In this document: positions 12,524-38,015 of the stretch, piece by piece | How positions within the stretch are numbered: the stretch's first letter is position 1 | How the letters are laid out: every line of letters begins with the position of its first letter | NCBI GenBank assembly: GCA_002726445.1 | Contig: PBSZ01000091.1 | Coordinates: 1 to 39,674, forward strand | Source of the DNA: Cellvibrionales bacterium | GTDB lineage: Bacteria; Pseudomonadota; Gammaproteobacteria; Pseudomonadales; UBA7434 | Direction of reading: 5' to 3' | DNA: 39,674 nucleotides | Program-made: the position numbers and the translations under genes | Notes under the pieces: model-generated | The model's database searches: none | What the model saw: the letters and a program-made list of their open reading frames with translations, nothing else | What the model was told of the DNA's origin: nothing

Positions 12524-13657
12524 ATGAGTCCGACCATGACATCGATAAGCACAGACAAAAAAATCTGCTGGGTCATTAAGATTGGCAGCGCACTACTGAC
12601 AGGTAATGGTCAAGGTTTAGCGGTGGACGCTCTCGATCACTGGGTCGAGCAGATAGCCAAATTAAAAGCCATGGACTATGACATCGTCATCGTCTCTTCA
12701 GGCTCGGTTGCCGAAGGCATGACTCGGCTAGGGCTTCAACAACGCCCTACCGCGCTTCATCAATTACAGGCCGCCGCAGCGATCGGCCAAGCTGGCTTAA
12801 TTCAAGCCTATGAAACACGCTTTAAAAAGTTTGATTTACTAACCGCGCAAATTTTATTGGTGCACGACGACTTATCTTCACGCACTCGCTACCTTAATGC
12901 GAGACAAACACTGCAAAGTCTACTCGATTCCAATGTTATTCCTATTGTCAATGAGAATGACACCGTAGCAACCGATGAAATTCGTTTTGGCGACAATGAT
13001 ACCTTAGCCGGTCAAGTTGCCAATTTGGTCGATGCTGAACGCTTAGTCATTCTAACCGATCAGCAAGGCGTGTTTACCAAAGATCCTAGAAAACATCGTG
13101 ACGCCACATTAATTCAAGAATGTGACGTGAATGACAAGACACTCGATGCAGCCGCGAGTGGCAGCAGCGGCAACCTAGGTCGCGGCGGCATGAGCACTAA
13201 AATAAAAGCCGCACGGTTAGCGGCCCGCTCTGGTGCAGACACCGTTATCACGGATGGATTAACGAATAATGTCATTATTCGACTGGCCAACAATGAGTGT
13301 CTAGGCACGCGACTAAGCAGTATAGATAGCCCTATTAGCCAGCGAAAACAGTGGCTTTCAGGCAGTCTGGCAAGCTGCGGGCAATTAATTATCGATCAAG
13401 GCGCCGAAAAGAAACTACTCGAATCAGGCAGCAGCTTATTACCCATCGGTGTAACTGGGGTAAATGGAGAGTTTTCTAGAGGTGACCTGGTTAGTTGTGT
13501 TAGCACTGACGGGCGAGAAGTGGCGCGCGGTTTAACAAACTACAGCAGCGAAGAAGCTAATAAAATTGTCGGCCAAGCCAGTGATCAACTTAGCGCACTG
13601 TTAGGTTACGGTGGTGACGAAGAGCTCATACATCGCGATAATCTTGTATTAGTCTAA
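12524..13657 (+). CDS. proB: Glutamate 5-kinase
   Basis: VIKIGSALL, VSSG, NENDTV, FGDNDTL, GGMSTK and a C-terminal PUA domain ending HRDNLV. Confidence 0.97.
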   Translation: MSPTMTSISTDKKICWVIKIGSALLTGNGQGLAVDALDHWVEQIAKLKAMDYDIVIVSSGSVAEGMTRLGLQQRPTALHQLQAAAAIGQAGLIQAYETRFKKFDLLTAQILLVHDDLSSRTRYLNARQTLQSLLDSNVIPIVNENDTVATDEIRFGDNDTLAGQVANLVDAERLVILTDQQGVFTKDPRKHRDATLIQECDVNDKTLDAAASGSSGNLGRGGMSTKIKAARLAARSGADTVITDGLTNNVIIRLANNECLGTRLSSIDSPISQRKQWLSGSLASCGQLIIDQGAEKKLLESGSSLLPIGVTGVNGEFSRGDLVSCVSTDGREVARGLTNYSSEEANKIVGQASDQLSALLGYGGDEELIHRDNLVLV

Positions 13658-13667
13658 ATCGAAACAC

Positions 13668-16600
13668 CTATTTCACAGAAAGCAAAATATCGCCGTCATC
13701 TAAGCCGGGACGATTAAGCTCGCCCTGCGATTTAATCTTCCCTGGCGGATCATTAATGGTTTCTGTCAACTCAGCAGCACAATAAGAGGCATCGACCTGC
13801 GCTTGCGGGGCTTCGTTATAGCAAGTTTTTCGTTGCTTAGGCAGGCGTGCTAAGCGACGGATCATTGCATCCATCTGTGAAGGAGGCATTTCTTGACCAT
13901 GCTGAGCACCGGCCGAGCGGGTAATCGTTTCATTCATTAATGTACCACCTAAATCGTTAGCACCCGAATTTAAACAAGCTGCCACGCCCTGCTCGCCCAT
14001 TTTGACCCATGAGGCTTGAATATTATGAATTTGGCCGTGCAAGACAAGACGAGCGACGGCGTGCATCAATACGGCCTCACGAAAAGTTGGCCCTTTACGT
14101 GACAGGCCTTTTAAATACATCGGCGCTTCTTCAGGCACAAAAGGTAATGGAACAAATTCAGTAAAACCACCCGTCTTAACTTGCAGCGCTCGCAATCTCA
14201 ATAAGTGGCGCGCCCAATGAGTAGGCGTTTCTATGTGGCCATACATAATCGTGGATGTGGTTTTCATGCCTAAGCTATGTGCCGTTTCCATGACATGCAA
14301 CCACTGCTCAGTACGGATTTTTTCAGGACAGAGCGTGTCGCGCACTTCGTCATCTAATATCTCTGCCGCGGTGCCAGGCAAGGTTGATAAACCCGCTTCA
14401 ATTAACTGCTGCAAGTAGGTTTTAATATCTAGGCCTAAGGTTTTCGCCCCCTGCCAAATTTCTAATGGCGAAAAAGCATGGATATGCATATCGGGAGAGG
14501 CTTGTTTAATCGCATGGCAAATATCAATGTACGTCTGGCCAGTATAGCCAGGGTGAATACCACCCTGCATACACACTTCAGTCGCACCGCGATCCCAAGC
14601 TTCGCAGGTTCGACGCTGAATTTCTTGCTCGCTTAAATCGTAAGGCCTGCCACGTAAGTTTTCACTCATTTTGCCCTTAGAAAAGGCACAAAATTGGCAT
14701 TTAAAATAACAAATATTGGTGTAGTTAATATTGCGATTAACCACGTATTTAACCGTATCTCTATTCACTGACTGTCGAAGTGAGTCTGCCGCATGACAGA
14801 CATGCCAAAAGTCATCGTTACGCGCCGAAAAGAGTTGCGCCACTTCTTGTTCTTCCAGCACTTCGCCAGCTGAAGCCTTGGCTGTAATCGCAGCGATCGC
14901 GCTTGAAGCAACCGGCCTTGCTTGGTCATCTTTTTGTGCTTGCCACCAAGCAGGGATCGTATTCGAAATGCCCGCCACCCAGTTGTCTGTTCGCGGCCAA
15001 CCTTCACTATCGATCATGGCAAGCACCTTAGCCTGCATAGTGGGTTCTACCCAACGACAAGTGTCGCTCGCATAGTCAGGGTAGATGGTTAGTCTTTCAT
15101 GCAGGTACTTACCCGTCGCACGAGTTTGAGATGCCAACTGATCAACATGAGGCCATGGGGCCTCTGGATTGACATGATCTGGGGTCAGTGGCGATACACC
15201 ACCCCAGTCATCGATGCCTGCTTGAACAATCTTTTCTAGCTCGCCCGGGCTCAAATTAGGCGGCGCTTGAATATGCATCGCAGCACCAAAAATAATACGC
15301 GCGACTGCAATAGTCCAAAGTAATTCTTCGACGCTGGGATCAGGCGCCTGAGCCATTTTAGTATCAGGCTTGGCTCTAAAGTTTTGAATGATCACTTCTT
15401 GCAAGTGGCCATACTGCTCATGTAAATCACGCAGCGCCAACATTGATTCAATACGCTCGCGGCGCGTTTCACCAATGCCGATTAGAATGCCCGAAGTGAA
15501 CGGCACATTTAATTCACCGGCCAATCGAATTGTCTCTAAACGAACAGCAGGGTCTTTATCAGGCGAACCGTAGTGCGGCATACCTTTTTCGGTTAAGCGC
15601 TCGGAGGATGACTCGAGCATGATCCCCATTGAAGCCGACACTTTTCGCAATGCTTTAATCTCGTCAGCATCCATACATCCGGCATTAATATGCGGCAGTA
15701 GAGAGGTCTCCTCTGCGACCCGTTGAGCAACATGTGTCACGTATTCTAACGTGGTACTGAAGCCCATCTCAGCCAAAGCCTCGCGCGCCACTCGATAGCG
15801 CAACTCTGGCTTTTCGCCCAAGGTGAAAAGCGCTTCTTTGCAACCCTGTAACTCACCTTGCTTAGCTAAAGCAACCACTTCATCAGCCGTCATGTAAATA
15901 GCGTCGAGGTGTCTTGGTGTGGTGGCGAAAGTACAGTAGTGACAAACATCACGACACAAATGGGTCAGCGGAATAAATACTTTTCTCGAATAAGAAATCA
16001 GCGAACCATGCCCAGCATCTCGCAAGGCCGATGCCTGTTTCATTAATGCCACTAAATCATCATTATCAGCTAATGCCAAGGCCTGACTCTGCGACGGTCG
16101 ATCAAGCAGACTGTAATCAAGTGATGTTGAAGCCTGCGCATCGATTATCGAACTCGGCTCAACCTCTTCAACCTCTAGCATCCACATCATTTGTAGGCGT
16201 TGGGCAATTGCACTGTCACGACAATATTCAGAGGTGTGTGAAGCGGTATGCAAAGCCTGAACTGACACCGTATCCGATGACAGTGAATGTGATTGATTAA
16301 GGCCAAGAATAAAGGCCATTAAATCACTGGGGGTATCAATATCTGCGGCAATCGCCCTTGAATAAAATCGTTGGATCAACATGTCTTGCGCGGCAAATGA
16401 TTCCTGATGAAGCGCAAAACTATTGCGCCCAAAGTGAAATAGCTGCCGATTTAATGTTTGTCGTTGCTGAATTTTAAGCGGTAAGAATTGGCTGCTGTGC
16501 AATACCATTGTATTGGTGCCGGTTTGATGACGGTCAGAGACTAAGGTCACTGAATCGCGCCGCACTGAAGAGGATAAATCATCTCGCTGTTGCGCAAGTC

Positions 16601-16982
16601 GTTCTATCTCAGCGATCGACAACTCGGGCAGATCGGCATGTAAAATACAGATATCGGTATCGTCAGCTAATTGTAAAACATGCTCACAGCCAGCATTAAT
16701 AGCCGCATTCAATGGAGAAAAAAGCGTGTTCAATTTTGAATGTACTTGAGCGCCTTGTTCTGGCTCAGAGATTAGCGTCACGCCATGGTGCTTAGCCATT
16801 AAAGCGGCAGTTGGATCATCAGACACTATCACAATGCCGTTTATTGAGGGTGCCTGAGTTAATACTGACAATACATCTTCAACCATCGCATGAAATAAAC
16901 GATGGCGCTCAGCAGCCGATAACACGCCAGAAAGACGCTGCTTGGCACTGACAAAATCTTTAAGTGGTAAGACTGCCCACAT
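13668..16982 (-). CDS. fbiC: Fused CofC-like guanylyltransferase + bifunctional Fo synthase (CofG-CofH, FbiC)
   Basis: aa 1-~265 carry CofC motifs (AVLPLK..AKQRL, HADLP, GTN, FGRNS, DIDTPSDL). CofG domain: YSRKVFIPLTHLCRDVCHYC, EALFTLGEKP, DDWGGVSP. CofH domain: YVVNRNINYTNICYFKCQFC, MQGGIHP, PGTAAEIL, NIQASWVK, NDLGGTLMNE. The frame is uninterrupted. Confidence 0.93.
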   Translation of the reverse strand: MWAVLPLKDFVSAKQRLSGVLSAAERHRLFHAMVEDVLSVLTQAPSINGIVIVSDDPTAALMAKHHGVTLISEPEQGAQVHSKLNTLFSPLNAAINAGCEHVLQLADDTDICILHADLPELSIAEIERLAQQRDDLSSSVRRDSVTLVSDRHQTGTNTMVLHSSQFLPLKIQQRQTLNRQLFHFGRNSFALHQESFAAQDMLIQRFYSRAIAADIDTPSDLMAFILGLNQSHSLSSDTVSVQALHTASHTSEYCRDSAIAQRLQMMWMLEVEEVEPSSIIDAQASTSLDYSLLDRPSQSQALALADNDDLVALMKQASALRDAGHGSLISYSRKVFIPLTHLCRDVCHYCTFATTPRHLDAIYMTADEVVALAKQGELQGCKEALFTLGEKPELRYRVAREALAEMGFSTTLEYVTHVAQRVAEETSLLPHINAGCMDADEIKALRKVSASMGIMLESSSERLTEKGMPHYGSPDKDPAVRLETIRLAGELNVPFTSGILIGIGETRRERIESMLALRDLHEQYGHLQEVIIQNFRAKPDTKMAQAPDPSVEELLWTIAVARIIFGAAMHIQAPPNLSPGELEKIVQAGIDDWGGVSPLTPDHVNPEAPWPHVDQLASQTRATGKYLHERLTIYPDYASDTCRWVEPTMQAKVLAMIDSEGWPRTDNWVAGISNTIPAWWQAQKDDQARPVASSAIAAITAKASAGEVLEEQEVAQLFSARNDDFWHVCHAADSLRQSVNRDTVKYVVNRNINYTNICYFKCQFCAFSKGKMSENLRGRPYDLSEQEIQRRTCEAWDRGATEVCMQGGIHPGYTGQTYIDICHAIKQASPDMHIHAFSPLEIWQGAKTLGLDIKTYLQQLIEAGLSTLPGTAAEILDDEVRDTLCPEKIRTEQWLHVMETAHSLGMKTTSTIMYGHIETPTHWARHLLRLRALQVKTGGFTEFVPLPFVPEEAPMYLKGLSRKGPTFREAVLMHAVARLVLHGQIHNIQASWVKMGEQGVAACLNSGANDLGGTLMNETITRSAGAQHGQEMPPSQMDAMIRRLARLPKQRKTCYNEAPQAQVDASYCAAELTETINDPPGKIKSQGELNRPGLDDGDILLSVK

Positions 16983-17010
16983 AAAAAAACCTATTTATAG
17001 TTGAGTGTTA

Positions 17011-17973
17011 TTACGCCGTTGAAGAATACAGTTGTTCAGTAAACTGCAAACATTGCTCAGCTAAATTTATCTTATCTTGCTCGCTGTGCATCACCGTATC
17101 GGTTATTTTTACCTTGATGCCCATCGTCTCAATTTCAGCGGCTCGATCAGAATCGCTGCGATCAATAACCAGGCCGTCAATGATATCACTATAGTAACTA
17201 GCAACACCGCTCACCGAGACTGGCATTTCAAGCCCCTGCATCATATTTGCGGTTGGTCCCTTGATCGCCATGCCATTCACAATAGGCGATACTGCAATAA
17301 TAGGTGCCCGACATCGCTTAAGTTTTGGTAATACCGACGGTATTTTTAAGATCGGGTCGACACTGACAAAGGGGTTCGACGGGCAAATAATAATCGCCTT
17401 TGGCTCAGCCGCTATGGCCATCTCGAAAGCGTCGCTAGGAGTCGCTGATGACATGCCGTTAAAACGAATCTCGCTGATCGGGGGTTGGCACTGCTGGCCG
17501 ACAAAATAGTCTTGGAAGTCAAGCCAACCCTGTTCAGTTAGCACCTGTGTCGCAACGGCGTCGTTGGTCATGGGAATCAGCTGTTGTTCGACCCCTAGCG
17601 CTTGACATAGCTTGGCTGTGACCTGCTCTAAACTGAGGCCCTGCTCAAAATATTGGCGCCTACGCGTATGTGTGGCGAGATCACGATCGCCCAATCGAAA
17701 CCAGGTCTCGCCGCCAAGCGCCGACATAGCATCCATAAACTGCCACGTTTCATTGGCCACTCCCCAACCCTGCTCGACATTACTTAAACCCGCCAAGGTA
17801 TACATCACGGTATCGAGATCTGGCGAAACAGGAAATCCTAAATGACAGAAGTCATCGGCAGTATTAGCAACAATAGTCAACTGTTTTGCCGACAGTGATC
17901 GCGCCAAGCCCAGCGCTAATTTCGCACCGCCAACACCGCCTGAAAGGGCTAATATATTTGCTTGCTCTATCAT
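17011..17973 (-). CDS. cofD: 2-phospho-L-lactate/phosphoenolpyruvate transferase (CofD/FbiA)
   Basis: LSGGVGGAKL, ANTADD, SPDLDTVMY, WFRLGDRD, PSNPFVS and VSPIV..AIKGP. Confidence 0.95.
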   Translation of the reverse strand: MIEQANILALSGGVGGAKLALGLARSLSAKQLTIVANTADDFCHLGFPVSPDLDTVMYTLAGLSNVEQGWGVANETWQFMDAMSALGGETWFRLGDRDLATHTRRRQYFEQGLSLEQVTAKLCQALGVEQQLIPMTNDAVATQVLTEQGWLDFQDYFVGQQCQPPISEIRFNGMSSATPSDAFEMAIAAEPKAIIICPSNPFVSVDPILKIPSVLPKLKRCRAPIIAVSPIVNGMAIKGPTANMMQGLEMPVSVSGVASYYSDIIDGLVIDRSDSDRAAEIETMGIKVKITDTVMHSEQDKINLAEQCLQFTEQLYSSTA

Positions 17974-17988
17974 TCTATAATCACTTGG

Positions 17989-18762
17989 CTAACGAAACAG
18001 ATCGGCTTTTTTGTCACGGATCAATGCGCTAGCATCCTGTTCGCTGGCCTGCCAATCCCAACCTCGAATAACGACCGCTGGAACCGATTCACCACCCTGC
18101 CCCATCAATAGCGAAGCGGCCGATGCCAGTTCGTCTGCGTCAGCCATTTCGGTAACTTCTAGCGGCCGACCGAATAAATCAGAGGCGCCAATCGCTGAGC
18201 GCAATGCCGGCACGGCAGCACTGCCTATAGCAAAACCGGTAATGCCATTACGCCATGCTCGACCCGCACTGTCACTGATAATGATACCTATTTTTAAGCC
18301 TTGCCGAGCAAAATAATCGGCAAGCTGTTTCGCACTCAAATTGGCATCAATGGGCAGTAACAAGACCCGTTCACGGCCCTCAAAATCAGTAATATTAGAC
18401 CGATCAATACCAGCATTAGCATGCACGTATCCACAGCGATGCTCGACAATCATAACGCCTGGGCGATGCCTAACCACTTCTTTTGACTCGTCTAGAATCA
18501 ACTGCACTAAGCGAGGATCTTTATCCACTTCTGCGGCCCATTGCAGCGCCTCGGCAGAAGGCTCAATTTCGTCCAGTAAGGCATAGCGACCTTCAGATTT
18601 TGAAATAATTTTTTGTGCGATAACCAGTATATCGCCATCCACGAGTTTGAACTCAGCGGCAGCTAAAGCGACATCGATTAAGGCTGACAAATCATCGCCA
18701 ACCTCGATCAAAGGTAATGTTTTCAGTGCGGTTAGGGAAAGATCCACAGGCGCGACTGGCAA
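17989..18762 (-). CDS. cofE: Coenzyme F420-0:L-glutamate ligase (single-domain CofE)
   Basis: QKIISKSEGR, ANAGIDRSN, SDSAGRAWRNG, DLFGRPL, ADELAS and terminal DLFR. TTG start immediately follows the npdG stop, with GAGG upstream. Confidence 0.94.
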   Translation of the reverse strand: MPVAPVDLSLTALKTLPLIEVGDDLSALIDVALAAAEFKLVDGDILVIAQKIISKSEGRYALLDEIEPSAEALQWAAEVDKDPRLVQLILDESKEVVRHRPGVMIVEHRCGYVHANAGIDRSNITDFEGRERVLLLPIDANLSAKQLADYFARQGLKIGIIISDSAGRAWRNGITGFAIGSAAVPALRSAIGASDLFGRPLEVTEMADADELASAASLLMGQGGESVPAVVIRGWDWQASEQDASALIRDKKADLFR

Positions 18763-19443
18763 TTAAGCCTCTGGAATGCCCGTTATGGCAAGCCCAGCAT
18801 GACACTTGTATTGCTTGTTAATAAAAATCAGCACCGAGGTGAGGGCTTCAACCGCCGCGGCATTTGCGATTGAACCACCGTGGTAGCCCTTCATGCCCGC
18901 CGCCTCAACAAGCTTGATCACTTCTTCTCGGGCCGCTTTTTTATTGCCGCAGACAATAACGTCACAGGTTAAGTCACTGCCCGCTTGTAAATGCACAGCA
19001 GCGACATTTTGAAATGCCGATACTACTTGAACATTTTCACCAACGATCTCCTGAGCGATTTGACCTGCTGAGCCCTGCTCTGGCAATTGGACACGCGCTA
19101 CTTTAGGTGGCACTAATGGCACCGTTACATCAATTAAAATTTTACCCTCAAGCACATCTTTAACTGACTCTAAGGTGCTGGCATGGTGGGCAAAAGGAAC
19201 CGTCATTGCAACGATATCGGCCGCACTGGCAGCCGCATGGTTATCCATTGCTTCGGCAGCAGAATCAGCAATGCCTCGCTCTTGCATCAAGCCTTGTAAG
19301 GCATCGACCGCTTGTTGCGCTTTTTCTTGGGTCCGCGAGCCAATGATGACGCGATAGCCGGCCTGTGCCCAACGACGAGCTAAACCGGTACCAAGATCAC
19401 CAGTACCGCCTAAAATGGCAACAGTGGGTAGTAAATCACTCAT
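18763..19443 (-). CDS. npdG: NADPH-dependent F420 reductase (F420H2:NADP+ oxidoreductase, Fno)
   Basis: ILGGTGDLGTGLA, IGSR, TVPF, DVTVPL, VSAFQNV and VEALT..LI.IN..YK; first gene of the cof operon. Confidence 0.9.
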   Translation of the reverse strand: MSDLLPTVAILGGTGDLGTGLARRWAQAGYRVIIGSRTQEKAQQAVDALQGLMQERGIADSAAEAMDNHAAASAADIVAMTVPFAHHASTLESVKDVLEGKILIDVTVPLVPPKVARVQLPEQGSAGQIAQEIVGENVQVVSAFQNVAAVHLQAGSDLTCDVIVCGNKKAAREEVIKLVEAAGMKGYHGGSIANAAAVEALTSVLIFINKQYKCHAGLAITGIPEA

Positions 19444-19714
19444 AGCAATTCCTTATTGTAATTGTGGATTAAATTGTCGGCCAACGGTCATCGTTGAACG
19501 AAGTCAATGAACCAAAACAGGTTTACGGTTATTATACGCTGAAATCACCTTTAAAGATGAGTGGCAATAACCGCCACCCTAGCAAGGCATATTTCCCTTT
19601 TAAATCAAGATGCAGTTACAATAAGCGGAAATAAGCAATTAAACAATTCGCTAACATCGAGCCTAACTCGATTTTTAGCATCCGATCGGCATCACTAGTA
19701 ATGCGAATGGAATT

Positions 19715-20539
19715 ATGGCTAACAACGATAATACGCAAGACAACGCTACCAATACGAGACTTTGCTTCGATAACGCTGTGGTATTGGTGACCGGCGGCGG
19801 CAAAGGGGTGGGGCTAGGGATAAGTCTGCGCTTTCTTGAGGCAGGTGCAACTGTCTATATTTGCGGCCGATCCGCACCAGAATCGCTGCCATCGGCATCG
19901 ACTAAAGACGGCAGTAATGTCGCACAATTTATTAACGCCGATGTCCGCGATCTGGATCAGACACAAGCCATGTTCGATCAAATCAAAACCGAATCGGGTC
20001 GTTTAGATGTGTTAGTCAACAATGCTGGCGGCGCACCTCCGGCTGAAGCGGCAACGGCATCACCGCGTTTTTCAGCATCAATTATTAATCTGAATTTGCT
20101 TGCGCCGATTAACCTTGCTCAAATGGCCAATGCCATCATGCAAAATCAAGCCTGTGGCGGAAGTATTATCAATATTGCCAGTGTTAGCGTCATTCGGCCT
20201 TCTCCGGGCACGGCCGCTTATGGCGCTGCCAAGGCAGGCATGGTCAACTTTTCCTCATCAGTCGCGGTAGAATGGGCGCCAAAGGTCCGTGTTAATGCGG
20301 TTATCGCAGGTTTAGTGAGAACCGAGCAAGCGGAATTACATTACGGTGATGAAGCCGGCATCGAGGCGGTGGGGCGTACGATTCCTCTGGGTCGCATGGC
20401 GCAACCTCAGGACATTGGTGATGCCTGTTTATTTTTAGCTTCATCACTGGCAAGCTATGTATCTGGCTCAACGGTAACCGTTCATGGCGGCGGCGAAGCA
20501 CCCGCCTTTCTGTCCGCTTCTAACGCAAATAACGAGTAA
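19715..20539 (+). CDS. Short-chain dehydrogenase/reductase
   Basis: [22 protein letters not shown] and terminal VHGGGE.P; resembles SDRs of actinobacterial steroid/lipid catabolic clusters. Confidence 0.88.
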
Positions 20540-20546
20540 GTCACTT

Positions 20547-21686
20547 ATGTCTTCACATTCTCCAACGGTCGACCTTGCCATGCAGCTAATGGCCTGTCGC
20601 TCGGTGACACCTATCGACGATGGCTGCCAAGATATTATGATTGCTCGATTGCAAGCCATCGGCTTTAAAATTGAGCGTTTACGGTTTGATGACGTGGATA
20701 ATTTCTGGGCGGTTCATGGTGACAGTGGCGATATCCTGGCCTTTGCTGGCCATACCGATGTCGTGCCAGCTGGTGACGAAAGCCAATGGCAGTACCCACC
20801 TTATCAGCCTCGTGTCGAACAAGGCCAGTTATGCGGTCGTGGTGCTGCCGATATGAAAGGCAGCTTAGCCGCGATGGTTACCGCCACCGAGGCTTTTATT
20901 TCCGCACACCCTAATCACCCCAACCGTCTGGCTTTTTTAATCACCAGCGATGAAGAAGGAATCGCCATTAATGGCACTGTTAGGGTAATGGACTATTTAG
21001 CCGATCAAAATGAAACGATTCGTTGGTGCGTGGTAGGTGAGCCCTCTAGCACCGCATTAACCGGCGATACGATTAAAAATGGTCGTCGCGGATCACTGGG
21101 GCTGAAATTGACTATCCACGGTGTTCAAGGTCATGTCGCCTACCCCCATTTAGCGGATAATCCCATTTTTAGTTTTTCTCCCGCTCTGGCCGAGCTGAAT
21201 CAAACAGAATGGGATCGAGGCAATGATTTCTTTCCTACCACGAGCTTTCAAATTTCTAATATACAAGCCGGCACAGGGGCGACTAACGTTATCCCTGGTG
21301 ACTTACACATCATCGCTAATTTTCGCTTTTCAACTGAGCTGACAGTCGACGACATTAAACAACGGCTAACTGCCATTCTTGATCGGCATGGTTTGCAGTT
21401 TAGTATTGAATGGCACTTGAGCGGACTGCCGTTCATCACTGAGCGAGGCGAATTAATTGACGCCAGCGTGACGGCTATCGAACAAGTGACCGGCTTGCAT
21501 ACAGAGTTGAGCACCGCTGGCGGCACATCGGACGGGCGCTTCATTGCGCCAACCGGCGCCCAACTGGTGGAACTCGGCCCTGTGAACAAGACTATTCATC
21601 GAGTCAATGAACGGGTGAATGCAGCTGAACTCGACCAGTTACAGGCAATCTATGAAAAAATAATGACCGCATTACTCAGCGACTAA
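20547..21686 (+). CDS. dapE: Succinyl-diaminopimelate desuccinylase
   Basis: [40 protein letters not shown] and GGTSDGRF. Start moved to ATG 20547 because the ORF-track start overlaps the SDR. Confidence 0.96.
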
Positions 21687-21945: not shown

Positions 21946-22491
21946 CTAAAAAATCAAACCCAGCGTCGGCACATCAATATTAGCGTAATCCATAATAACC
22001 TCTCGATCAGCGATTTTAAAATTCCCATCAATCATTAATAATTGATCATTACGCTGGCCGCTATAGATAAAATTATCACTGCCGGGTCTAGCAAAAAATA
22101 AATGGAAGTTGCTCCGCACGCGAACACTTTCATCACTGTGGTCAAGCACCTCAACATTGCCAATAATACGACGCGTTCTAGCCGGTGGGTTGTCGGCCCA
22201 AGAGTTCATCTTATAGGCTCTGTCTACTCGGACAAAAAGGTGGGCATAACTCTCTTCACGAATCGGGCAGCCCAAACCATCGCTACCCTCAAGTTCATTA
22301 TCTATTGCAATCATAGCCTCTTCACCGCGCTGACGATTATTGACTAAGGCATTGACTCTTGCAGGCATTACATAGCGAATACTTTCACTAACGAGGGATA
22401 ACCACTGCTGATATTGACGGCCATCTAACAAGCTAGCTTCGCGGTAGTAGAACTGCTCGATCGCATATTGTCTTTCAATATCAGATATCAT
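21946..22491 (-). CDS. Aromatic ring-hydroxylating dioxygenase beta subunit
   Basis: FYYREASLLD, W...IRYVMP, SWADNPPARTRR, SGQRND and KIADREV; overlaps the alpha-subunit stop. Confidence 0.92.
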   Translation of the reverse strand: MISDIERQYAIEQFYYREASLLDGRQYQQWLSLVSESIRYVMPARVNALVNNRQRGEEAMIAIDNELEGSDGLGCPIREESYAHLFVRVDRAYKMNSWADNPPARTRRIIGNVEVLDHSDESVRVRSNFHLFFARPGSDNFIYSGQRNDQLLMIDGNFKIADREVIMDYANIDVPTLGLIF

Positions 22492-23803
22492 CAGCGCTTA
22501 CCTGTTTGGAACTGGCGATTAATTCACGGCTATCATTCACTGCTTCTAATGCAGATCGCCATCGCGAAAAGAAAGCACGGGCATAATATTCATTGGCCGT
22601 TACACTGAGCATGCCGGGAAGATCCGGGTGCGGCTTTTCCTCCCCTAAACCTAAGCCATAGAAATAAGGTTTATCGTCTGCAAAATCGATATTACTGCCT
22701 AAATACTGTTGCATCCATGCTTCTGAATCTTCTTGTTCAAGAATGCCACCCGGACCAAAAAAAGAACTGTAGTTAGTACGGAGTATTTTTTTAATCGCAT
22801 CGGGGGCATCGGCAGGCACCACTGCCCACGACCAATACTCGACTTTATTCGGCCCTCGAGGATGCGACACTTTGAACGAAGTATTCGACCATAAAAAGGA
22901 TAAATTGGGATAAACACCATAGGTTAGACCTTTCATACGCGAGCGAATGTTGCCAACCCGCTCAGCGGCTTTGGCCTGAATCTCAAACAGATACTCCTGT
23001 ATTTCAGCGCCCCCTAAAATGGCACCCATGCCTTCCATACCCCATGCCACATGTGCGTTATCAGTCCCCTCTGGCATGAGTCTAAAGGTAGCACCGTGAC
23101 CGGGCTCAGGAACAGCACTCCAACCGACTGAAAATATTTCTTCATTCGCTTCCGCTGGTATTACTGCACTGTGTAAAAACGGCCCATGATTCACATCACC
23201 TAACTGGTTCTCCATCGGCAATTTCCAGTTAGCGTTAATTGTCCAACGATGAGGCGCGCCAATAAACTCTATACCATTGTCAAAGCGTTCAAAAAAAGCA
23301 TCTAAGTAAAATCGCATATCACCGAGATAACTGTCGAGCGACTGAACTGACTCATCGAAACAACCAAAAATCATTCCACGCCACGACTCCACTCTAGGCA
23401 CAGCTTTGAGACCCAATACGGACTTGTCAGGCTTGTTGGTTAATAATTTTTCTTGGGGTATAGCCACTAAGCTGCCGTCAACACGGTAGGACCAGTTATG
23501 ATACGGGCAAAGGAAACGCTTGGTGTTGCCATGGTCAGCACGACAAACCGGTAAGCCACGATGGGAGCAGCTATTAATAGAAGCGTAAATTTTACGGTCT
23601 TCGCCGCGGGCTAAGATAATTGGCGTTTCACACATATAAGCTTGAACAAAATCACCTGGGTTTTTAATTTGACTTTCATGCCCTAAAAAAAGCCAAGCTT
23701 TAGCAAAGATACCCTTTTTCTCAAGTTCATAAACGCGCTGGTCGGTCCAAGCCTTGCGACTCACATAAGCGGCATCATCACTGACTAAATCACTTATCTT
23801 CAA
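22481..23803 (-). CDS. Aromatic ring-hydroxylating dioxygenase alpha subunit (Rieske)
   Basis: Rieske C-x-H-x17-C-x2-H (CSHRG...CPYHNW). Mononuclear Fe region NWKLPMENQLGDVNHGPFLH and GPGGILEQEDSE. Confidence 0.94.
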   Translation of the reverse strand: MKISDLVSDDAAYVSRKAWTDQRVYELEKKGIFAKAWLFLGHESQIKNPGDFVQAYMCETPIILARGEDRKIYASINSCSHRGLPVCRADHGNTKRFLCPYHNWSYRVDGSLVAIPQEKLLTNKPDKSVLGLKAVPRVESWRGMIFGCFDESVQSLDSYLGDMRFYLDAFFERFDNGIEFIGAPHRWTINANWKLPMENQLGDVNHGPFLHSAVIPAEANEEIFSVGWSAVPEPGHGATFRLMPEGTDNAHVAWGMEGMGAILGGAEIQEYLFEIQAKAAERVGNIRSRMKGLTYGVYPNLSFLWSNTSFKVSHPRGPNKVEYWSWAVVPADAPDAIKKILRTNYSSFFGPGGILEQEDSEAWMQQYLGSNIDFADDKPYFYGLGLGEEKPHPDLPGMLSVTANEYYARAFFSRWRSALEAVNDSRELIASSKQVSADDI

Positions 23804-23839: not shown

Positions 23840-24730
23840 TTAGAGTTGTGGTATTTCTGCTAGGTTTAATGGCAACTCAGACTTATTATAACAATCGGCA
23901 CGGAAACTTAACGTTTCGGCGGCTTGATCAACATTGATCATGACCACAAAACGCTGCTCGCGAATACCGTCTAATAAATATTGTGCCAACTCATCTAAAT
24001 CTTGAAACTGTAATTCCATACCCGCCGCTTCAGCTGCTTGCTTAAAGTCCTCAACCGAAGGCACAGGATCATAAGGTTTTTCACGCGCCAAATCAGCAGG
24101 CCTATTTCTATCGGTGGTCCAAATACCCGTATCTAGCACACCGCCCGAGGGGTAAAACAAGCTGGCGCGGACATTGGTTTCTTCAGTAATTAACTGCGCT
24201 GCGAGGCACTCGGTAATAATCGATACAGCCGCTTTACTCGACGCGTAAACCGATTGATAAGGCAATGGTGAGATACCACCATCACCGGATGAAGTATTAA
24301 TCACATGGCACTCATCACCCGAAGCAATCATTTTAGGTACAAACGCTTGAATGCCGTGAATGACGCCCATTACATTAACACCATGCACCCACTTCCAATC
24401 ATTAATCGTGGTTTCCCAAACATTGCACGAAGGGGCAGCCACACCGGCATTATTAAATAATAAATGACAGCCACCATGATCGGCATACACTTGATCTGCT
24501 AGCGCATTAACTGAATCGGGGCTGGATACATCAGTCTGGATGCCGCTTAAGCTTGCATCATCAGCACCTAATTCAGCAATTACGCTGTCGATAGCGCTCT
24601 GCTCAACATCGGCAATCACTACCTTAGCGCCCTCGGCTAATAAAGCGCGCACTATCGCTTTTCCGATACCACTAGCACCGCCTGTCACAACCGCTACTTT
24701 ATCTTTAAACTGTTTCATGATGAATTCCAC
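23840..24730 (-). CDS. Short-chain dehydrogenase/reductase (start may be ATG 24718)
   Basis: TGGASGIG, FNNAGV, NTSS and YASSK. Confidence 0.88.
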   Translation of the reverse strand: MEFIMKQFKDKVAVVTGGASGIGKAIVRALLAEGAKVVIADVEQSAIDSVIAELGADDASLSGIQTDVSSPDSVNALADQVYADHGGCHLLFNNAGVAAPSCNVWETTINDWKWVHGVNVMGVIHGIQAFVPKMIASGDECHVINTSSGDGGISPLPYQSVYASSKAAVSIITECLAAQLITEETNVRASLFYPSGGVLDTGIWTTDRNRPADLAREKPYDPVPSVEDFKQAAEAAGMELQFQDLDELAQYLLDGIREQRFVVMINVDQAAETLSFRADCYNKSELPLNLAEIPQL

Positions 24731-30119: not shown

Positions 30120-30419
30120 ATGTTATATGCCATTATCAGTGAAGATGTTGAAAACAGCCTAGCCTTGCGACAACAAGTTAGAGACCAGCACTTAGCGCGA
30201 TTAACTCACCTCAAGGATCAAGGTCGGTTGGTACTAGCAGGTCCTCATCCCGCCATCGATACTGAAGAGCCCGGCACATCAGGCTTCACCGGCAGTTTAA
30301 TCGTTGCCCAGTTTGACAGTCTGCAGGCAGCCGAACAATGGGCAAAACAAGACCCTTATATTGCCGCCGGTGTTTATCAACAGGTCACTGTTAAGCCGTT
30401 TAAAAAGGTTTTGCCTTAA
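30120..30419 (+). CDS. yciI: YciI family protein
   Basis: HLARL, AGP, GSLIV and DPY...GVY. Confidence 0.93.
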   Translation: MLYAIISEDVENSLALRQQVRDQHLARLTHLKDQGRLVLAGPHPAIDTEEPGTSGFTGSLIVAQFDSLQAAEQWAKQDPYIAAGVYQQVTVKPFKKVLP

Positions 30420-31141
30420 TGAAGAAAAACGACTTTAAGTTTTGCGCTCACCTAACAAGCCTACCCCTACTGCTTGCTTGCTGTGTCATGACAGCCTTGT
30501 TGCTCACCCCTATTGAGATCCAAGCTGAGCAAACAACGGTTTATGTTAGCGATGTTTTTTATGTGCCGCTACGCAGTGGCAACTCAAACAAACACCGCAT
30601 CATTCATCGCGGTCTTAAATCGGGCACGCCATTAACACTCATCGAATCTGACCTTGAAACAAAGCTAAGTCGGGTAACGACCAGCACCGGCATCGAGGGT
30701 TGGATACAAAGCCAATACCTTAGCGAAACCATGATTGCCCGAACACAGCTTCAAGATATACGCGCAACTGATAAATCCTTACGCCGTGAACTGCAATCTC
30801 GAACAGCCAATGAAACTCAACTGACTGAAGCGATAAGACAATCACAGCAAACACTCAAGCAATTGAAAAAAAATAATCAAGCACTTGAAACTGAATTGAG
30901 CCAGATAAAAAAACTCTCGGCTAATGCGATAAATTTAGATAATAACAACCGCAAGTTGTTACAGAATAACGAAATGCTCAAAATTGAAATTGCCGAACTA
31001 CAAGCCAACAACGCTAGACTGGCTGATAAAAGTGATAAAGAATGGTTTTTACGGGGCGCTTTCGCGGTTTTTATCGGTGCAATATTAGCCATAGCCCTGC
31101 CCCGCTTAAAAATAAAATCTCGAGCCAAAGAATGGTCTTAA
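30419..31141 (+). CDS. SH3-domain protein (YgiM/TIGR04211-like)
   Basis: Signal peptide, YVSD.FYVPLRSG, GIEGWI, coiled coil, then a C-terminal TM with a basic tail ending EWS. Confidence 0.85.
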   Translation: MKKNDFKFCAHLTSLPLLLACCVMTALLLTPIEIQAEQTTVYVSDVFYVPLRSGNSNKHRIIHRGLKSGTPLTLIESDLETKLSRVTTSTGIEGWIQSQYLSETMIARTQLQDIRATDKSLRRELQSRTANETQLTEAIRQSQQTLKQLKKNNQALETELSQIKKLSANAINLDNNNRKLLQNNEMLKIEIAELQANNARLADKSDKEWFLRGAFAVFIGAILAIALPRLKIKSRAKEWS

Positions 31142-36415: not shown

Positions 36416-36623
36416 AGATCAACTCCAAAAATTAGTTAGTTTATTCATCAAATACACAGCTACTGTAGCCAACAGAGACAGTTTACCTTGAATTCAGACC
36501 CACATAAACCACAATCAAGCCATGGCCCAAACTTAATGCAAATTAATCCTTTAAATCTCTCGCTCAGGTATGTTGGAGGTCAAACGATTGGGGCATCAAT
36601 CGACAGCTTCGAGGGCAATACTG

Positions 36624-38015
36624 ATGGATAACCAGACGATCAAGCAAGACAAAGCTGAACTGAACGCGGCTTGGGACGAGTTAATCGCTGAACTTCAATG
36701 TGCTAGGCAGGCCATTGATGATCCAGCGCTATTCCCTCCAGAGGCAAGCAGTCGCGTATTGGCCGAGGGCTATCGCTACCTAGCCGGATTTTTACACCAT
36801 GGGGTGGAGCGAACCTTTCACGAAGACGCGGATTTTCCTGTATTTCGCAATGCACTGTCAGTCATTAATAAATCCACCATTGAAAACCCCGATGCGATTT
36901 ATTTTTATGCCCCTATTGATGGCCGACAGCAATACGAAGTGACTGCGCAGTTAGACAATTTTGATCACTGGCAAGGCAAGCCCCGCGCCGCTGACCAAGT
37001 GCAGGCGCCGCAATACCTGATCTTTGAAGTGGCCGATGGACCGATGTCGGGTGACACAGGTGAATTAACAGAACTGGCAAAGGGTTTTAGAACCAGTTTT
37101 GGTCGGCTAGATAATGCCGACTTAATCGTCAGTGATGAGGGCGAGTTAAGAATTTTATTAGGCCCTGAAAAACCGGCCGGCTATGAAGGCAACTTTATCT
37201 GCACGCGTAAACCGCCCAATCAATACAGCAAAGACGGCCTCGATCGCTTTGCCACTTATATTAGCGGCAGGCAATTATTTTATGATTGGAAAAATGAGCA
37301 ATCAGTGGCCTTATCGATTCAGTCTATCGATCATATTGGCCAGCACCCCGCGCCCTTAACGCCGGTTAAAACGGCCGATCATTTGCGCCGCATGGGGGCC
37401 GTTATTCGTGGCCAAATGCACTTTTGGCTAAACTTTTACGACAAGGTATTAAATGTACATGGCAGTCATGGGCAACCCGAAGACGGTCGATTTTTCTTTC
37501 CCGTCAATGGCTATAACCGACCCAATGCCGCGTCGGGCGACACAGGCGGCGGCATGAGCACCAATGTCTATGCCGGCGGCATGTACGAATTAGCCGATGA
37601 CGAAGCACTCTATATCGAGGCAACTTACACAGGCTCGCCGATTTATGTCAGCGTTCATTTAGGAAATTTATGGGGCGAATCGCCTGATTATGCCAATCAC
37701 CAAAGTAGCCTTAATTTATTTCAGATGTACATGGGTGATGATCGTGTGCAACGTTGGATTGTTTCACACCGCGATCCAGGTATTCAAAACTGGCTAGACA
37801 CGACCGGCTTGCCAAAAGGGTTTTTATCGCATCGCTGGGCGTATTCAGAGATTCCACCCGAGAGTGAATGGCCGGTTATTGAGGCGAAAAAGATAAAACT
37901 CACTGACGTCGATCACTATATTCCTGCTGACATGCCGCGATTAAGCAAAGCCGAACGCGGGCAATCGATTGGCATTAGACAAGCGCATGTGCAACGTCGT
38001 TATCGATCGTTTTAA
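36624..38015 (+). CDS. Uncharacterised protein (DUF1214-like C-terminus)
   Basis: Long clean ORF with AEGYRYL, ENPDAIY, ESPDYANHQSSLN and HRDPGIQNWLDTTG. Start placed at ATG 36624, 8 nt after GAGGG. Confidence 0.7.
   Translation: MDNQTIKQDKAELNAAWDELIAELQCARQAIDDPALFPPEASSRVLAEGYRYLAGFLHHGVERTFHEDADFPVFRNALSVINKSTIENPDAIYFYAPIDGRQQYEVTAQLDNFDHWQGKPRAADQVQAPQYLIFEVADGPMSGDTGELTELAKGFRTSFGRLDNADLIVSDEGELRILLGPEKPAGYEGNFICTRKPPNQYSKDGLDRFATYISGRQLFYDWKNEQSVALSIQSIDHIGQHPAPLTPVKTADHLRRMGAVIRGQMHFWLNFYDKVLNVHGSHGQPEDGRFFFPVNGYNRPNAASGDTGGGMSTNVYAGGMYELADDEALYIEATYTGSPIYVSVHLGNLWGESPDYANHQSSLNLFQMYMGDDRVQRWIVSHRDPGIQNWLDTTGLPKGFLSHRWAYSEIPPESEWPVIEAKKIKLTDVDHYIPADMPRLSKAERGQSIGIRQAHVQRRYRSF

Follow-up and report, generated by a model that had tools for sequence, protein, structure and literature searches.

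An end-to-end fusion of the guanylyltransferase CofC with the Fo synthase FbiC in F420 operons of marine Gammaproteobacteria

Background

CofC/FbiD, the guanylyltransferase of coenzyme F420 biosynthesis, is usually treated as a separate small protein, and it is hard to assay alone. FbiC, the Fo synthase of Actinobacteria and Proteobacteria, is described in the relevant passages of an F420 review (PMC8498797) as a two-domain fusion only. The present work concerns a gene in which these two proteins are joined: in a stretch of 39,674 nucleotides (nt) from a Cellvibrionales bacterium (contig PBSZ01000091.1 of assembly GCA_002726445.1; the whole stretch is called the window below), one open reading frame (ORF) encodes CofC and both halves of FbiC, CofG and CofH, in a single polypeptide.

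Residues ~297-1104 of the window protein correspond to a full FbiC with both of its cysteine motifs, and the unfused FbiC of Litorivivens lipolytica (827 amino acids, aa) is 65% identical to the window protein over 817 residues; the difference from known FbiC lies in the addition of a CofC domain of ~270 aa and a linker at the N-terminus. The stand-alone CofC/FbiD proteins of solved structure (7P97 from Mycetohabitans, 6BWG/6BWH from M. tuberculosis and 2I5E from M. mazei) have the fold predicted for this domain, the same invariant residues and the same Asp triad, and stand-alone proteobacterial CofCs have the same C-terminal helix motif, whereas the window CofC is joined covalently to FbiC and carries two clade-specific inserts. 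FbiB, in which CofE is combined with the nitroreductase-fold FbiE, likewise unites neighbouring F420-biosynthesis functions in one polypeptide (according to the part of PMC8498797 that deals with it), although its partners are different and the cofE of the window is unfused. Comparable operons are the unfused ones of Zhongshania and of other families, whose gene order and orientation are identical to those of the window, but in which cofC has its own stop codon and fbiC starts a few to a few tens of nt further on; their identity to the window is 67-72% for FbiC and 33-48% for CofC.

The joining of CofC to FbiC constitutes a third type of fusion in F420 biosynthesis, beside FbiC and FbiB. F420 operons of bacteria were reportedly surveyed in most detail by Ney et al. 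2017 (ISME J), a paper that may show such architectures. No CofC-FbiC fusion is described in the F420 literature that was searched, a scope outside which lie supplements, InterPro/Pfam architecture tables and Ney et al. 2017, and the parts of PMC8498797, PMC11104420, PMC8764529, PMC7253369 and PMC6450877 that were covered mention no fusions but CofG-CofH and CofE-FbiE.

One reading frame for three domains

The gene is probably a real and functional fusion, in one frame and end to end, of neighbouring and translationally coupled cofC and fbiC genes. Its frame opens with an ATG and runs through 1104 aa and a stop codon without an internal stop (coordinates of all features are collected in Table 1). 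Translation confirms the one uninterrupted 1104-aa ORF of an earlier reading of these letters (the original prediction), as well as the positions given there for both CxxxCxxC motifs, for DIDTPSDL at aa 214 and for the acidic linker. The CofC::CofG::CofH domain reading put forward at the same time is upheld by a scan with hidden Markov models (HMMs), in which all three domains score above the Pfam and NCBIfam cut-offs. In Pfam, CofC matches aa 1-233 with 52.3 bits against a cut-off of 22, a pair of Radical_SAM matches follows, and CofH_C covers aa 939-1058. Among the NCBIfam models, cofC (TIGR03552) matches aa 3-225 with 108.8 bits against a cut-off of 105 (111.6 bits for the genome-level match), CofG (TIGR03550) matches aa 330-653 with 501.9 bits against 213, CofH (TIGR03551) matches aa 710-1057 with 574.1 bits against 374, and the bifunctional CofGH model NF006687 gives 1155.3 bits against 1018. 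The CofC domain takes in the C-terminal helices at aa 249-269, which are also present in proteobacterial stand-alone CofCs, and is followed by the acidic stretch EVEEVEPSSIIDAQAS (aa 270-285). The three cysteines of each radical S-adenosylmethionine (SAM) motif are invariant across 34 homologues.

Authenticity of the junction

Because the window comes from an assembly of 99 contigs that is 70% complete, an assembly error needed to be excluded. The interval 15700-16600 is found in nearly identical form in 20 public runs from 13 studies. One DNA contig (run X4) spans 15400-17031 without gaps and differs at a single letter, another (run X9, which may be the source of the window assembly) spans the whole of 15400-17100, and an 898-nt contig from a metatranscriptome library (X15) spans 15491-16388, from the last part of CofC through the linker into the first part of CofG; the contigs aligned over 15400-17100 show neither insertions nor deletions. 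A stop codon or an indel at the junction had been named in advance as the observation that would count against a fusion, and contigs from other studies cross it free of indels. The fusion junction is genuine and not an assembly error. The alternative, in which the frame is an artefact of assembly or sequencing or a recent, pseudogene-like read-through of two genes, draws on the fragmented metagenome-assembled genome (MAG) of 99 contigs from which the window is taken, and it is barely credible: in addition to the contigs from other studies, the same architecture is encountered at 28-98% identity, including in one-contig genomes of 2.5-4.8 Mb, and the members of the window clade are all either fused or cut by contig ends.

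Fused homologues and their distribution

When aa 1-330 were used as the query, all 33 matches were proteins of 1010-1115 aa carrying PF01983, PF04055 and PF19288, with 28-83% identity in the query region. The CofC domain alone, compared with longer proteins, gave 27 matches, which are 26 full-length fusions and one 514-aa fragment. With the FbiC part as the query, 20 of the 120 matches listed have PF01983; among these listed matches, the 14 closest full-length proteins (74-98% identity) are all fused, and the zone of 66-70% identity mixes fused with unfused (812-840 aa) proteins. One protein at 75% identity (P0219, 901 aa, no PF01983 match) is suspected to be truncated because its length falls between those of fused and unfused proteins and its contig measures 5 kb. 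The fusion is thereby recorded in at least 38 full-length clusters at 90% identity (the 33, and five more from two other searches). Where database names are given, the fused proteins are called just 'CofH', 'FO synthase' or '2-phospho-L-lactate guanylyltransferase', and their named sources are a Cellvibrionales bacterium, Oceanicoccus sp., O. sagamiensis (P0031, a fused homologue of 1060 aa) and a Halioglobus MAG; the fusion offers an explanation for genomes which, in automatic annotation, seem to be without cofC or to have an over-long 'CofH'.

A further search with the CofC domain, made against protein representatives, returned among its best 150 matches 149 proteins of 90-322 aa and one of 678 aa, and was not used for architecture counts because FbiC-type cluster representatives probably stand in for the fused proteins there. 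The 678-aa protein (P0085) belongs to a further fused lineage, is truncated within CofH and has 49% identity in its alignment to aa 1-739, so that fused forms exist outside the set recovered by word-based searches.

The genomic samples were drawn at three levels. At the level of the window's genus (g1; 21 species genomes, the window's own assembly G000 included), cofC lies above the cut-off in 8 of 21 genomes, in six of them within open frames of 1091-1113 aa and in two within frames ended by contig edges, and in a ninth the gene is fragmented; among the 21 genomes no cofC that exceeds the cut-off stands alone. In the remaining 12 genomes nothing matches cofC above the cut-off, and since most of them are rated 94-100% complete, F420 biosynthesis is patchy within the genus. 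At the level of the order (401 genomes, with cofC counted at E <= 1e-15 and taken as fused in an open frame of at least 1000 aa), 146 genomes have cofC and 18 of these 146 are fused, spread over six family codes (f1, f18, f22, f37, f53 and f56); the other cofC frames measure 144-512 aa, apart from one of 825 aa that starts at a contig end. At the level of the class, cofC is found in 16 of 400 scored genomes, and the 15 besides the window's genome are all unfused, with frames of 210-298 aa. A set of 22 named loci comprises six complete fusions (three MAGs near the window, two of them titled Cellvibrionales and one Pseudomonadota, and Pseudomonadales, Oceanicoccus and Spongiibacteraceae MAGs), four loci ended by contig edges, and 12 unfused Zhongshania loci with cofC ORFs of 247-263 aa, which include those of the cultured Z. 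marina, Z. aquimaris, Z. antarctica, Z. aliphaticivorans, Z. aquatica and Z. borealis.

So far the fusion is known from a single order of marine Gammaproteobacteria, in which it is recurrent. The earlier hint that it might be rare therefore stands as far as the F420 literature searched is concerned, from which the architecture is absent, but not for genomes and databases, given the 18 of 146 cofC-bearing genomes of the order and the at least 38 clusters that databases already hold. One genome of family f53 (G342) carries, on a single contig (C4), both a fused cofC in a 1089-aa frame and a stand-alone cofC of 264 aa, about 40 kb apart (41650-42246 and 1890-2480); the pair may have come from a duplication or a transfer, or may mark an intermediate state.

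Conservation and likely activity of the CofC domain

The CofC residues that are invariant over the 34 fused proteins include P6, K8, K14, R16, L17, L21, E25, R26, M33, D36, D56, D117, P119, G155, N157, G185, S188, H192, D214, D216 and D220. When fused and stand-alone CofCs are aligned together (45 sequences), 17 columns are invariant (K14, R16, L17, R26, L29, M33, D36, D117, P119, G155, N157, G185, S188, H192, D214, D216 and D220), and all 17 are also invariant among the 34 fused proteins. M. tuberculosis FbiD holds two Mg2+ ions by D116, D188 and D190, and its other ligand residues are K17, L92, S166, T148 and G163 (ligand description in PMC8764529). An HMMER alignment to 6BWG, whose numbering uses an inferred 14-residue tag offset, maps FbiD ligand residues to K8, L91, D117 and T156 of the window protein, and by motif G185, S188, D214 and D216 match FbiD G163, S166, D188 and D190, which makes D214 and D216 the presumptive Mg-binding pair of the fusion CofC. 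Across the 34 fused proteins K8, D117, G185, S188, D214 and D216 are invariant, L91 is nearly so, and position 156 is T or S.

The same residues bear on the substrate. The use of 3-phosphoglycerate (3-PG) by Mycetohabitans CofC is set by M91, H145 and S162, and a 3-PG enzyme is recognized by Ser at the position of FbiD G163, Met at that of L92 and His at that of M. smegmatis T152 (substrate passages of PMC8764529). The window protein departs from all three, with L91 (nearly invariant), T154 and G185 (invariant) at these positions, and because these residues replace M91, H145 and S162 the fusion CofC is predicted, on an inferred mapping of positions, to be of the type that uses 2-phospho-L-lactate (2-PL) or phosphoenolpyruvate (PEP).

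The predicted structure agrees with this assignment to the family. An AlphaFold2 (AF2) model of the domain (predicted local distance difference test score, pLDDT, 88.6; predicted TM-score, pTM, 0.88) has the MobA-like nucleotidyltransferase fold of solved CofC/FbiD, and its top eight Foldseek matches are chains of 7P97, 6BWG, 6BWH and 2I5E, with E-values of 1e-15 to 3e-11 and TM-scores (by target) of 0.90 for 7P97, 0.80 for 6BWG/6BWH and 0.72 for 2I5E. Among pairs with 83-92% identity in FbiC, those of the fused window clade are 58-75% identical in CofC and those of the unfused Zhongshania 57-85%, and by this comparison of identities the relative divergence rate of fused CofC equals that of unfused CofC. 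The fused domain is thus presumably functional, with catalytic activity predicted from its residues.

The opposite possibility, that the domain is dead or has been re-purposed (for example for regulation or GTP sensing) and that the true guanylyltransferase is encoded elsewhere, could appeal to the missing 30% of the window's own genome, to the borderline score against the cofC HMM, to the clade-specific inserts in the domain and to the relative G342 with its fused and stand-alone cofC on one contig. It is a highly improbable explanation of a domain that keeps all of its family-invariant and ligand-binding residues and matches unfused CofC in relative divergence rate. Moreover, genus g1 has no stand-alone cofC above the cut-off beside the fused gene, and in its genome G012 (one contig, 98% complete) the other match reaches just 46.7 bits against the cut-off of 105.

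Origin and recurrence of the fusion

The gene order fno-cofE-cofD-cofC-fbiC is common to fused and unfused loci, the unfused ones being found in five other families and in the 12 Zhongshania. In the unfused loci of the five other families, with starts taken as listed for the ORFs (the true ones could be further inside), the cofC-fbiC junction is an overlap of 4 nt in L005 and a gap of 5 nt in L004, 13 nt in L003 and 26 nt in L006; the listed frames also overlap in L002, where the true fbiC start is not fixed. Residue 297 of the fusion protein aligns with residue 18 of the unfused L. lipolytica FbiC. On the CofC side, stand-alone proteobacterial proteins have, after the Asp-x-Asp box, a helix with the motif H-T-x-x-Y-L-x-x-S-G-I-x-x-R-L followed by a variable tail, and the same motif occupies aa ~248-266 of the fused proteins. 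The alignment of FbiC residue 18 with aa 297, together with this helix motif and tail, points to a plain end-to-end join of two complete proteins, and the linker would then derive from the former CofC tail and the former FbiC N-terminus. The step itself would have been the loss of a short junction between the cofC stop and the fbiC start, that is, a stop loss; the adjacency and translational coupling of the two genes in unfused relatives provide a simpler origin than the idea of a metabolon, which is considered below. The motif helix is itself a C-terminal extension past the 196-position TIGR03552 model (as in the stand-alone proteins P0042-P0118), has a pLDDT of ~90 in the domain model, and was not found discussed in the passages of the F420 literature that were searched.

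Two trees of the CofC domain bear on how often the fused state has changed. The first (FastTree) contains 34 fused and 139 stand-alone CofC domains (173 rows), after removal of P0017, which has no N-terminus, of P0010, P0011, P0013 and P0014, which are near-copies of P0012, and of 10 of the 149 stand-alone matches that fell outside 195-330 aa; the second (IQ-TREE, LG+G4, quick) contains 55 rows picked after FastTree, namely 19 fused proteins, 31 stand-alone neighbours and five stand-alone proteins from the loci. The fused label requires eight changes on each tree, with starred branches forcing at least five changes on the FastTree tree and two on the IQ-TREE tree. Fused CofC domains are polyphyletic: an approximately unbiased (AU) test rejects the placement of all 19 fused rows in one clade (log-likelihood 270 lower, p-AU 0.00056), and the state, fused or unfused, has therefore changed more than once. 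That these changes were repeated fusions is inferred because all 15 cofC genes outside the order are unfused and the majority within the order is unfused as well. Oceanicoccus (fused) and Zhongshania (unfused), which have the same operon, are natural comparators for the effects of tethering, for F420 yield and for the protection of intermediates.

Linker and proposed working of the fusion protein

A full-length AF2 model (34-row alignment) has a mean pLDDT of 82.1 and a pTM of 0.70, with confident CofC, CofG and CofH modules and with pLDDT below 50 in a clade-specific insert (aa 77-86), at aa 231-246 and in the linker (aa 267-289). As the model comes without an inter-domain error map, it is silent on any docking of CofC to CofG or CofH and is used for the disordered linker alone. 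The linker also differs in length and sequence among the aligned fused homologues. Judging from these features, the catalytic modules are most likely independent of one another on a flexible, disordered tether of ~27 residues.

The N-terminal domain would make the GMP-activated side-chain donor and the radical-SAM domains CofH and CofG would make Fo, after which the separately encoded CofD would join both products into (dehydro-)F420-0 and CofE would add glutamates. The chemistry of the pathway would be unchanged by the fusion, which is a modest variation and not a new mechanism. The likely benefit would be fixed 1:1 synthesis and co-localisation, rather than a dedicated channel: since the fusion partner is FbiC, and since the intermediate between the FbiC domains is reported to move by diffusion, the fusion would ensure that the activities for Fo synthesis and for side-chain activation are equal in amount and close together. 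The fusion may also be of use as a ready-made part for heterologous F420 production.

A closer coupling has been suggested by the idea of a metabolon, in which the fusion holds the CofC site near the Fo-producing domains and CofD docks on CofC, taking over both Fo and the activated side chain (lactyl- or enolpyruvyl-diphosphoguanosine, LPPG or EPPG) without their release. The idea has some footing in published observations, for CofC/FbiD is active only when CofD/FbiA is present (PMC6450877) and its product (GPPG) stays bound to CofC (PMC8764529), both of which are taken, in the passages concerned, as hints of a hand-over from CofC to CofD; it would also suit the recurrence and persistence of the fusion and the presence of cofD next to it in every locus examined. 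The coupling is rather unlikely all the same, because the fusion partner is FbiC and not CofD, the consumer of the CofC product; the linker is predicted to be disordered and is variable in length and sequence; 128 of the 146 cofC-bearing genomes of the order do without the fusion; and even the two domains of FbiC pass their intermediate by diffusion (according to the relevant part of the review PMC8498797, which cites Philmus 2015). Complex prediction of CofD (23 rows) with the CofC domain (45 rows) gave 0.06 and 0.01 against a mark of 0.32, was run with no controls, and counts neither way. The most far-reaching version, in which the fusion is the core of a physical F420-0 assembly complex where Fo leaving CofG and the unstable GMP-activated side chain meet at one site, with CofD docked on the tethered CofC, is unlikely to be correct; if it were, the repeated independent fusion in oligotrophic marine Gammaproteobacteria would reflect selection against the loss of diffusible Fo and labile LPPG/EPPG.

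The position of the linker also raises the question of whether one gene yields two proteins, with FbiC freed by an internal start (at M265, M266 or M268) or by proteolysis of the linker, in which case the fusion would make no difference to the proteins present. Methionines do stand at the end of the CofC domain just before the linker, a disordered linker would be accessible to proteases, and the minus strand has a sigma-70-like match at 16171-16144, although such matches occur at chance frequency (10 against 9.6). Such a division of the product is very unlikely: translation from the first ATG would still yield CofC attached to FbiC, and the M-M-W-M stretch belongs to the conserved C-terminal helix of CofC in the window clade and is not a start context across the other fused clades.

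Several points weigh against the interpretation of the gene as a functional end-to-end fusion of independent domains with repeated origins. The assigned function of every fused protein derives from sequence and models, and the substrate type from three positions mapped by alignment; the contig from the RNA library is a sign of presence in that library and not proof of transcription. The TIGR03552 score of 108.8 bits barely exceeds the cut-off of 105, and the CofC of the window clade has two extra inserts, at aa ~75-88 (16719-16760) and about aa 148-180 (16443-16541; more narrowly aa ~166-180), which in the alignment are shared neither by the other fused clades nor by stand-alone CofCs and are modelled with low confidence. 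With the window's own genome at 70% completeness, the missing part could contain a second cofC. CofC identity within the window clade goes down to 43% with every member still fused, and a fusion that persists through such long divergence hints at an advantage beyond that of independent domains. With regard to origins, a grouping of the window clade with the Oceanicoccus-like clade is not rejected (p-AU 0.47, for a group named post hoc), and unrooted trees are blind to the distinction between gain and loss, so that a single ancient fusion which later split several times is also conceivable.

Operon and genome context

The fusion gene is the last gene of an operon with the order fno-cofE-cofD-cofC::fbiC, in which the end of cofD lies 28 nt from the ATG of the fusion (Table 1). 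The original prediction had placed cofD immediately upstream and had found no separate cofC in the operon, and family searches of the neighbouring ORFs agree on both counts; the window's own assembly (70% complete) likewise gives no further match to cofC, cofH or cofD. The product of cofE consists of the ligase domain alone (F420_ligase), without the nitroreductase domain that forms the C-terminal part of FbiB. Downstream of the fusion gene lie proB, obg and rplU in convergent orientation, and the remainder of the window holds ordinary chromosomal housekeeping genes. A promoter and terminator scan of 13400-19900 returned chance-level counts (10 against 9.6 expected, and 6 against 7.0).

Table 1. 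Coordinates of the fusion gene, its parts and the adjoining F420 genes in the window
Feature	Position	Strand	Evidence
cofC::fbiC fusion gene	13668..16982	-	single ORF, three-domain HMM matches
CofC/FbiD guanylyltransferase domain, aa 1-269	16176..16982	-	PF01983 and TIGR03552 above cut-offs, AF2 domain model, Foldseek
DIDTPSDL, aa 214-221	16320..16343	-	alignment with DIDEPEDL in 2I5E
Acidic variable linker, aa 270-296	16095..16175	-	low pLDDT, varying among fused homologues
CofG half of FbiC, aa ~297-690	14913..16094	-	TIGR03550; alignment to unfused FbiC
CofG radical-SAM CxxxCxxC, C343/C347/C350	15933..15956	-	invariant cysteines
CofH half of FbiC, aa ~691-1104	13668..14912	-	TIGR03551, PF19288 CofH_C
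CofH radical-SAM CxxxCxxC, C758/C762/C765	14688..14711	-	invariant cysteines
cofD/fbiA (2-phospho-L-lactate transferase), 320 aa	17011..17973	-	PF01933; TIGR01819 282 bits, cut-off 257
cofE (F420-0:gamma-glutamyl ligase), 257 aa	17989..18762	-	PF01996; TIGR01916 256.7 bits
npdG/fno (NADPH-dependent F420 reductase), heading the operon	18763..19443	-	TIGR01915 193.9 bits, cut-off 149.8

The window is contig C91 of its assembly (G000; 1.56 Mb in 99 contigs), and the organism appears to need F420, given five matches of its genome to PF04075 (Ddn-like F420H2-dependent reductase), a family matched by none of 14 control genomes, and 14 luciferase-like (PF00296) matches. At the ecological level, uncultured marine bacteria of the Cellvibrionales type appear to use F420. 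With these genes (loci L032-L041 and further places), a small marine genome appears to be heavily committed to F420-dependent enzymes.

The actinobacterial PEP route with FbiB has a dehydro-F420-0 reductase domain, fused to CofE or stand-alone, and a search for one in the 70%-complete genome gave nothing but two generic nitroreductases far under the cut-off. These stand-alone nitroreductase-family genes (L030:1423-2118 and L031:1420-2073, both on the minus strand) score 50.7 and 22.4 bits against the 249.6-bit cut-off of TIGR03553 (FbiB C-terminal domain), and in NCBIfam they come closest, though weakly, to the FbiB C-terminal domain and to BluB; if the PEP route is used, both are candidates for the reductase and no more.

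Elsewhere in the window, two plus-strand ORFs, at 30419-31141 (240 aa) and 36570-38015 (481 aa), match nothing in Pfam at E <= 1e-4. Beside the F420 operon lie a short-chain dehydrogenase/reductase (SDR) gene (19715-20539, plus strand) and an M20 peptidase gene (20484-21686, plus strand), followed further along by genes for the beta and alpha subunits of a Rieske ring-hydroxylating dioxygenase (21946-23803, minus strand) and by a second SDR gene (23840-24730, minus strand).

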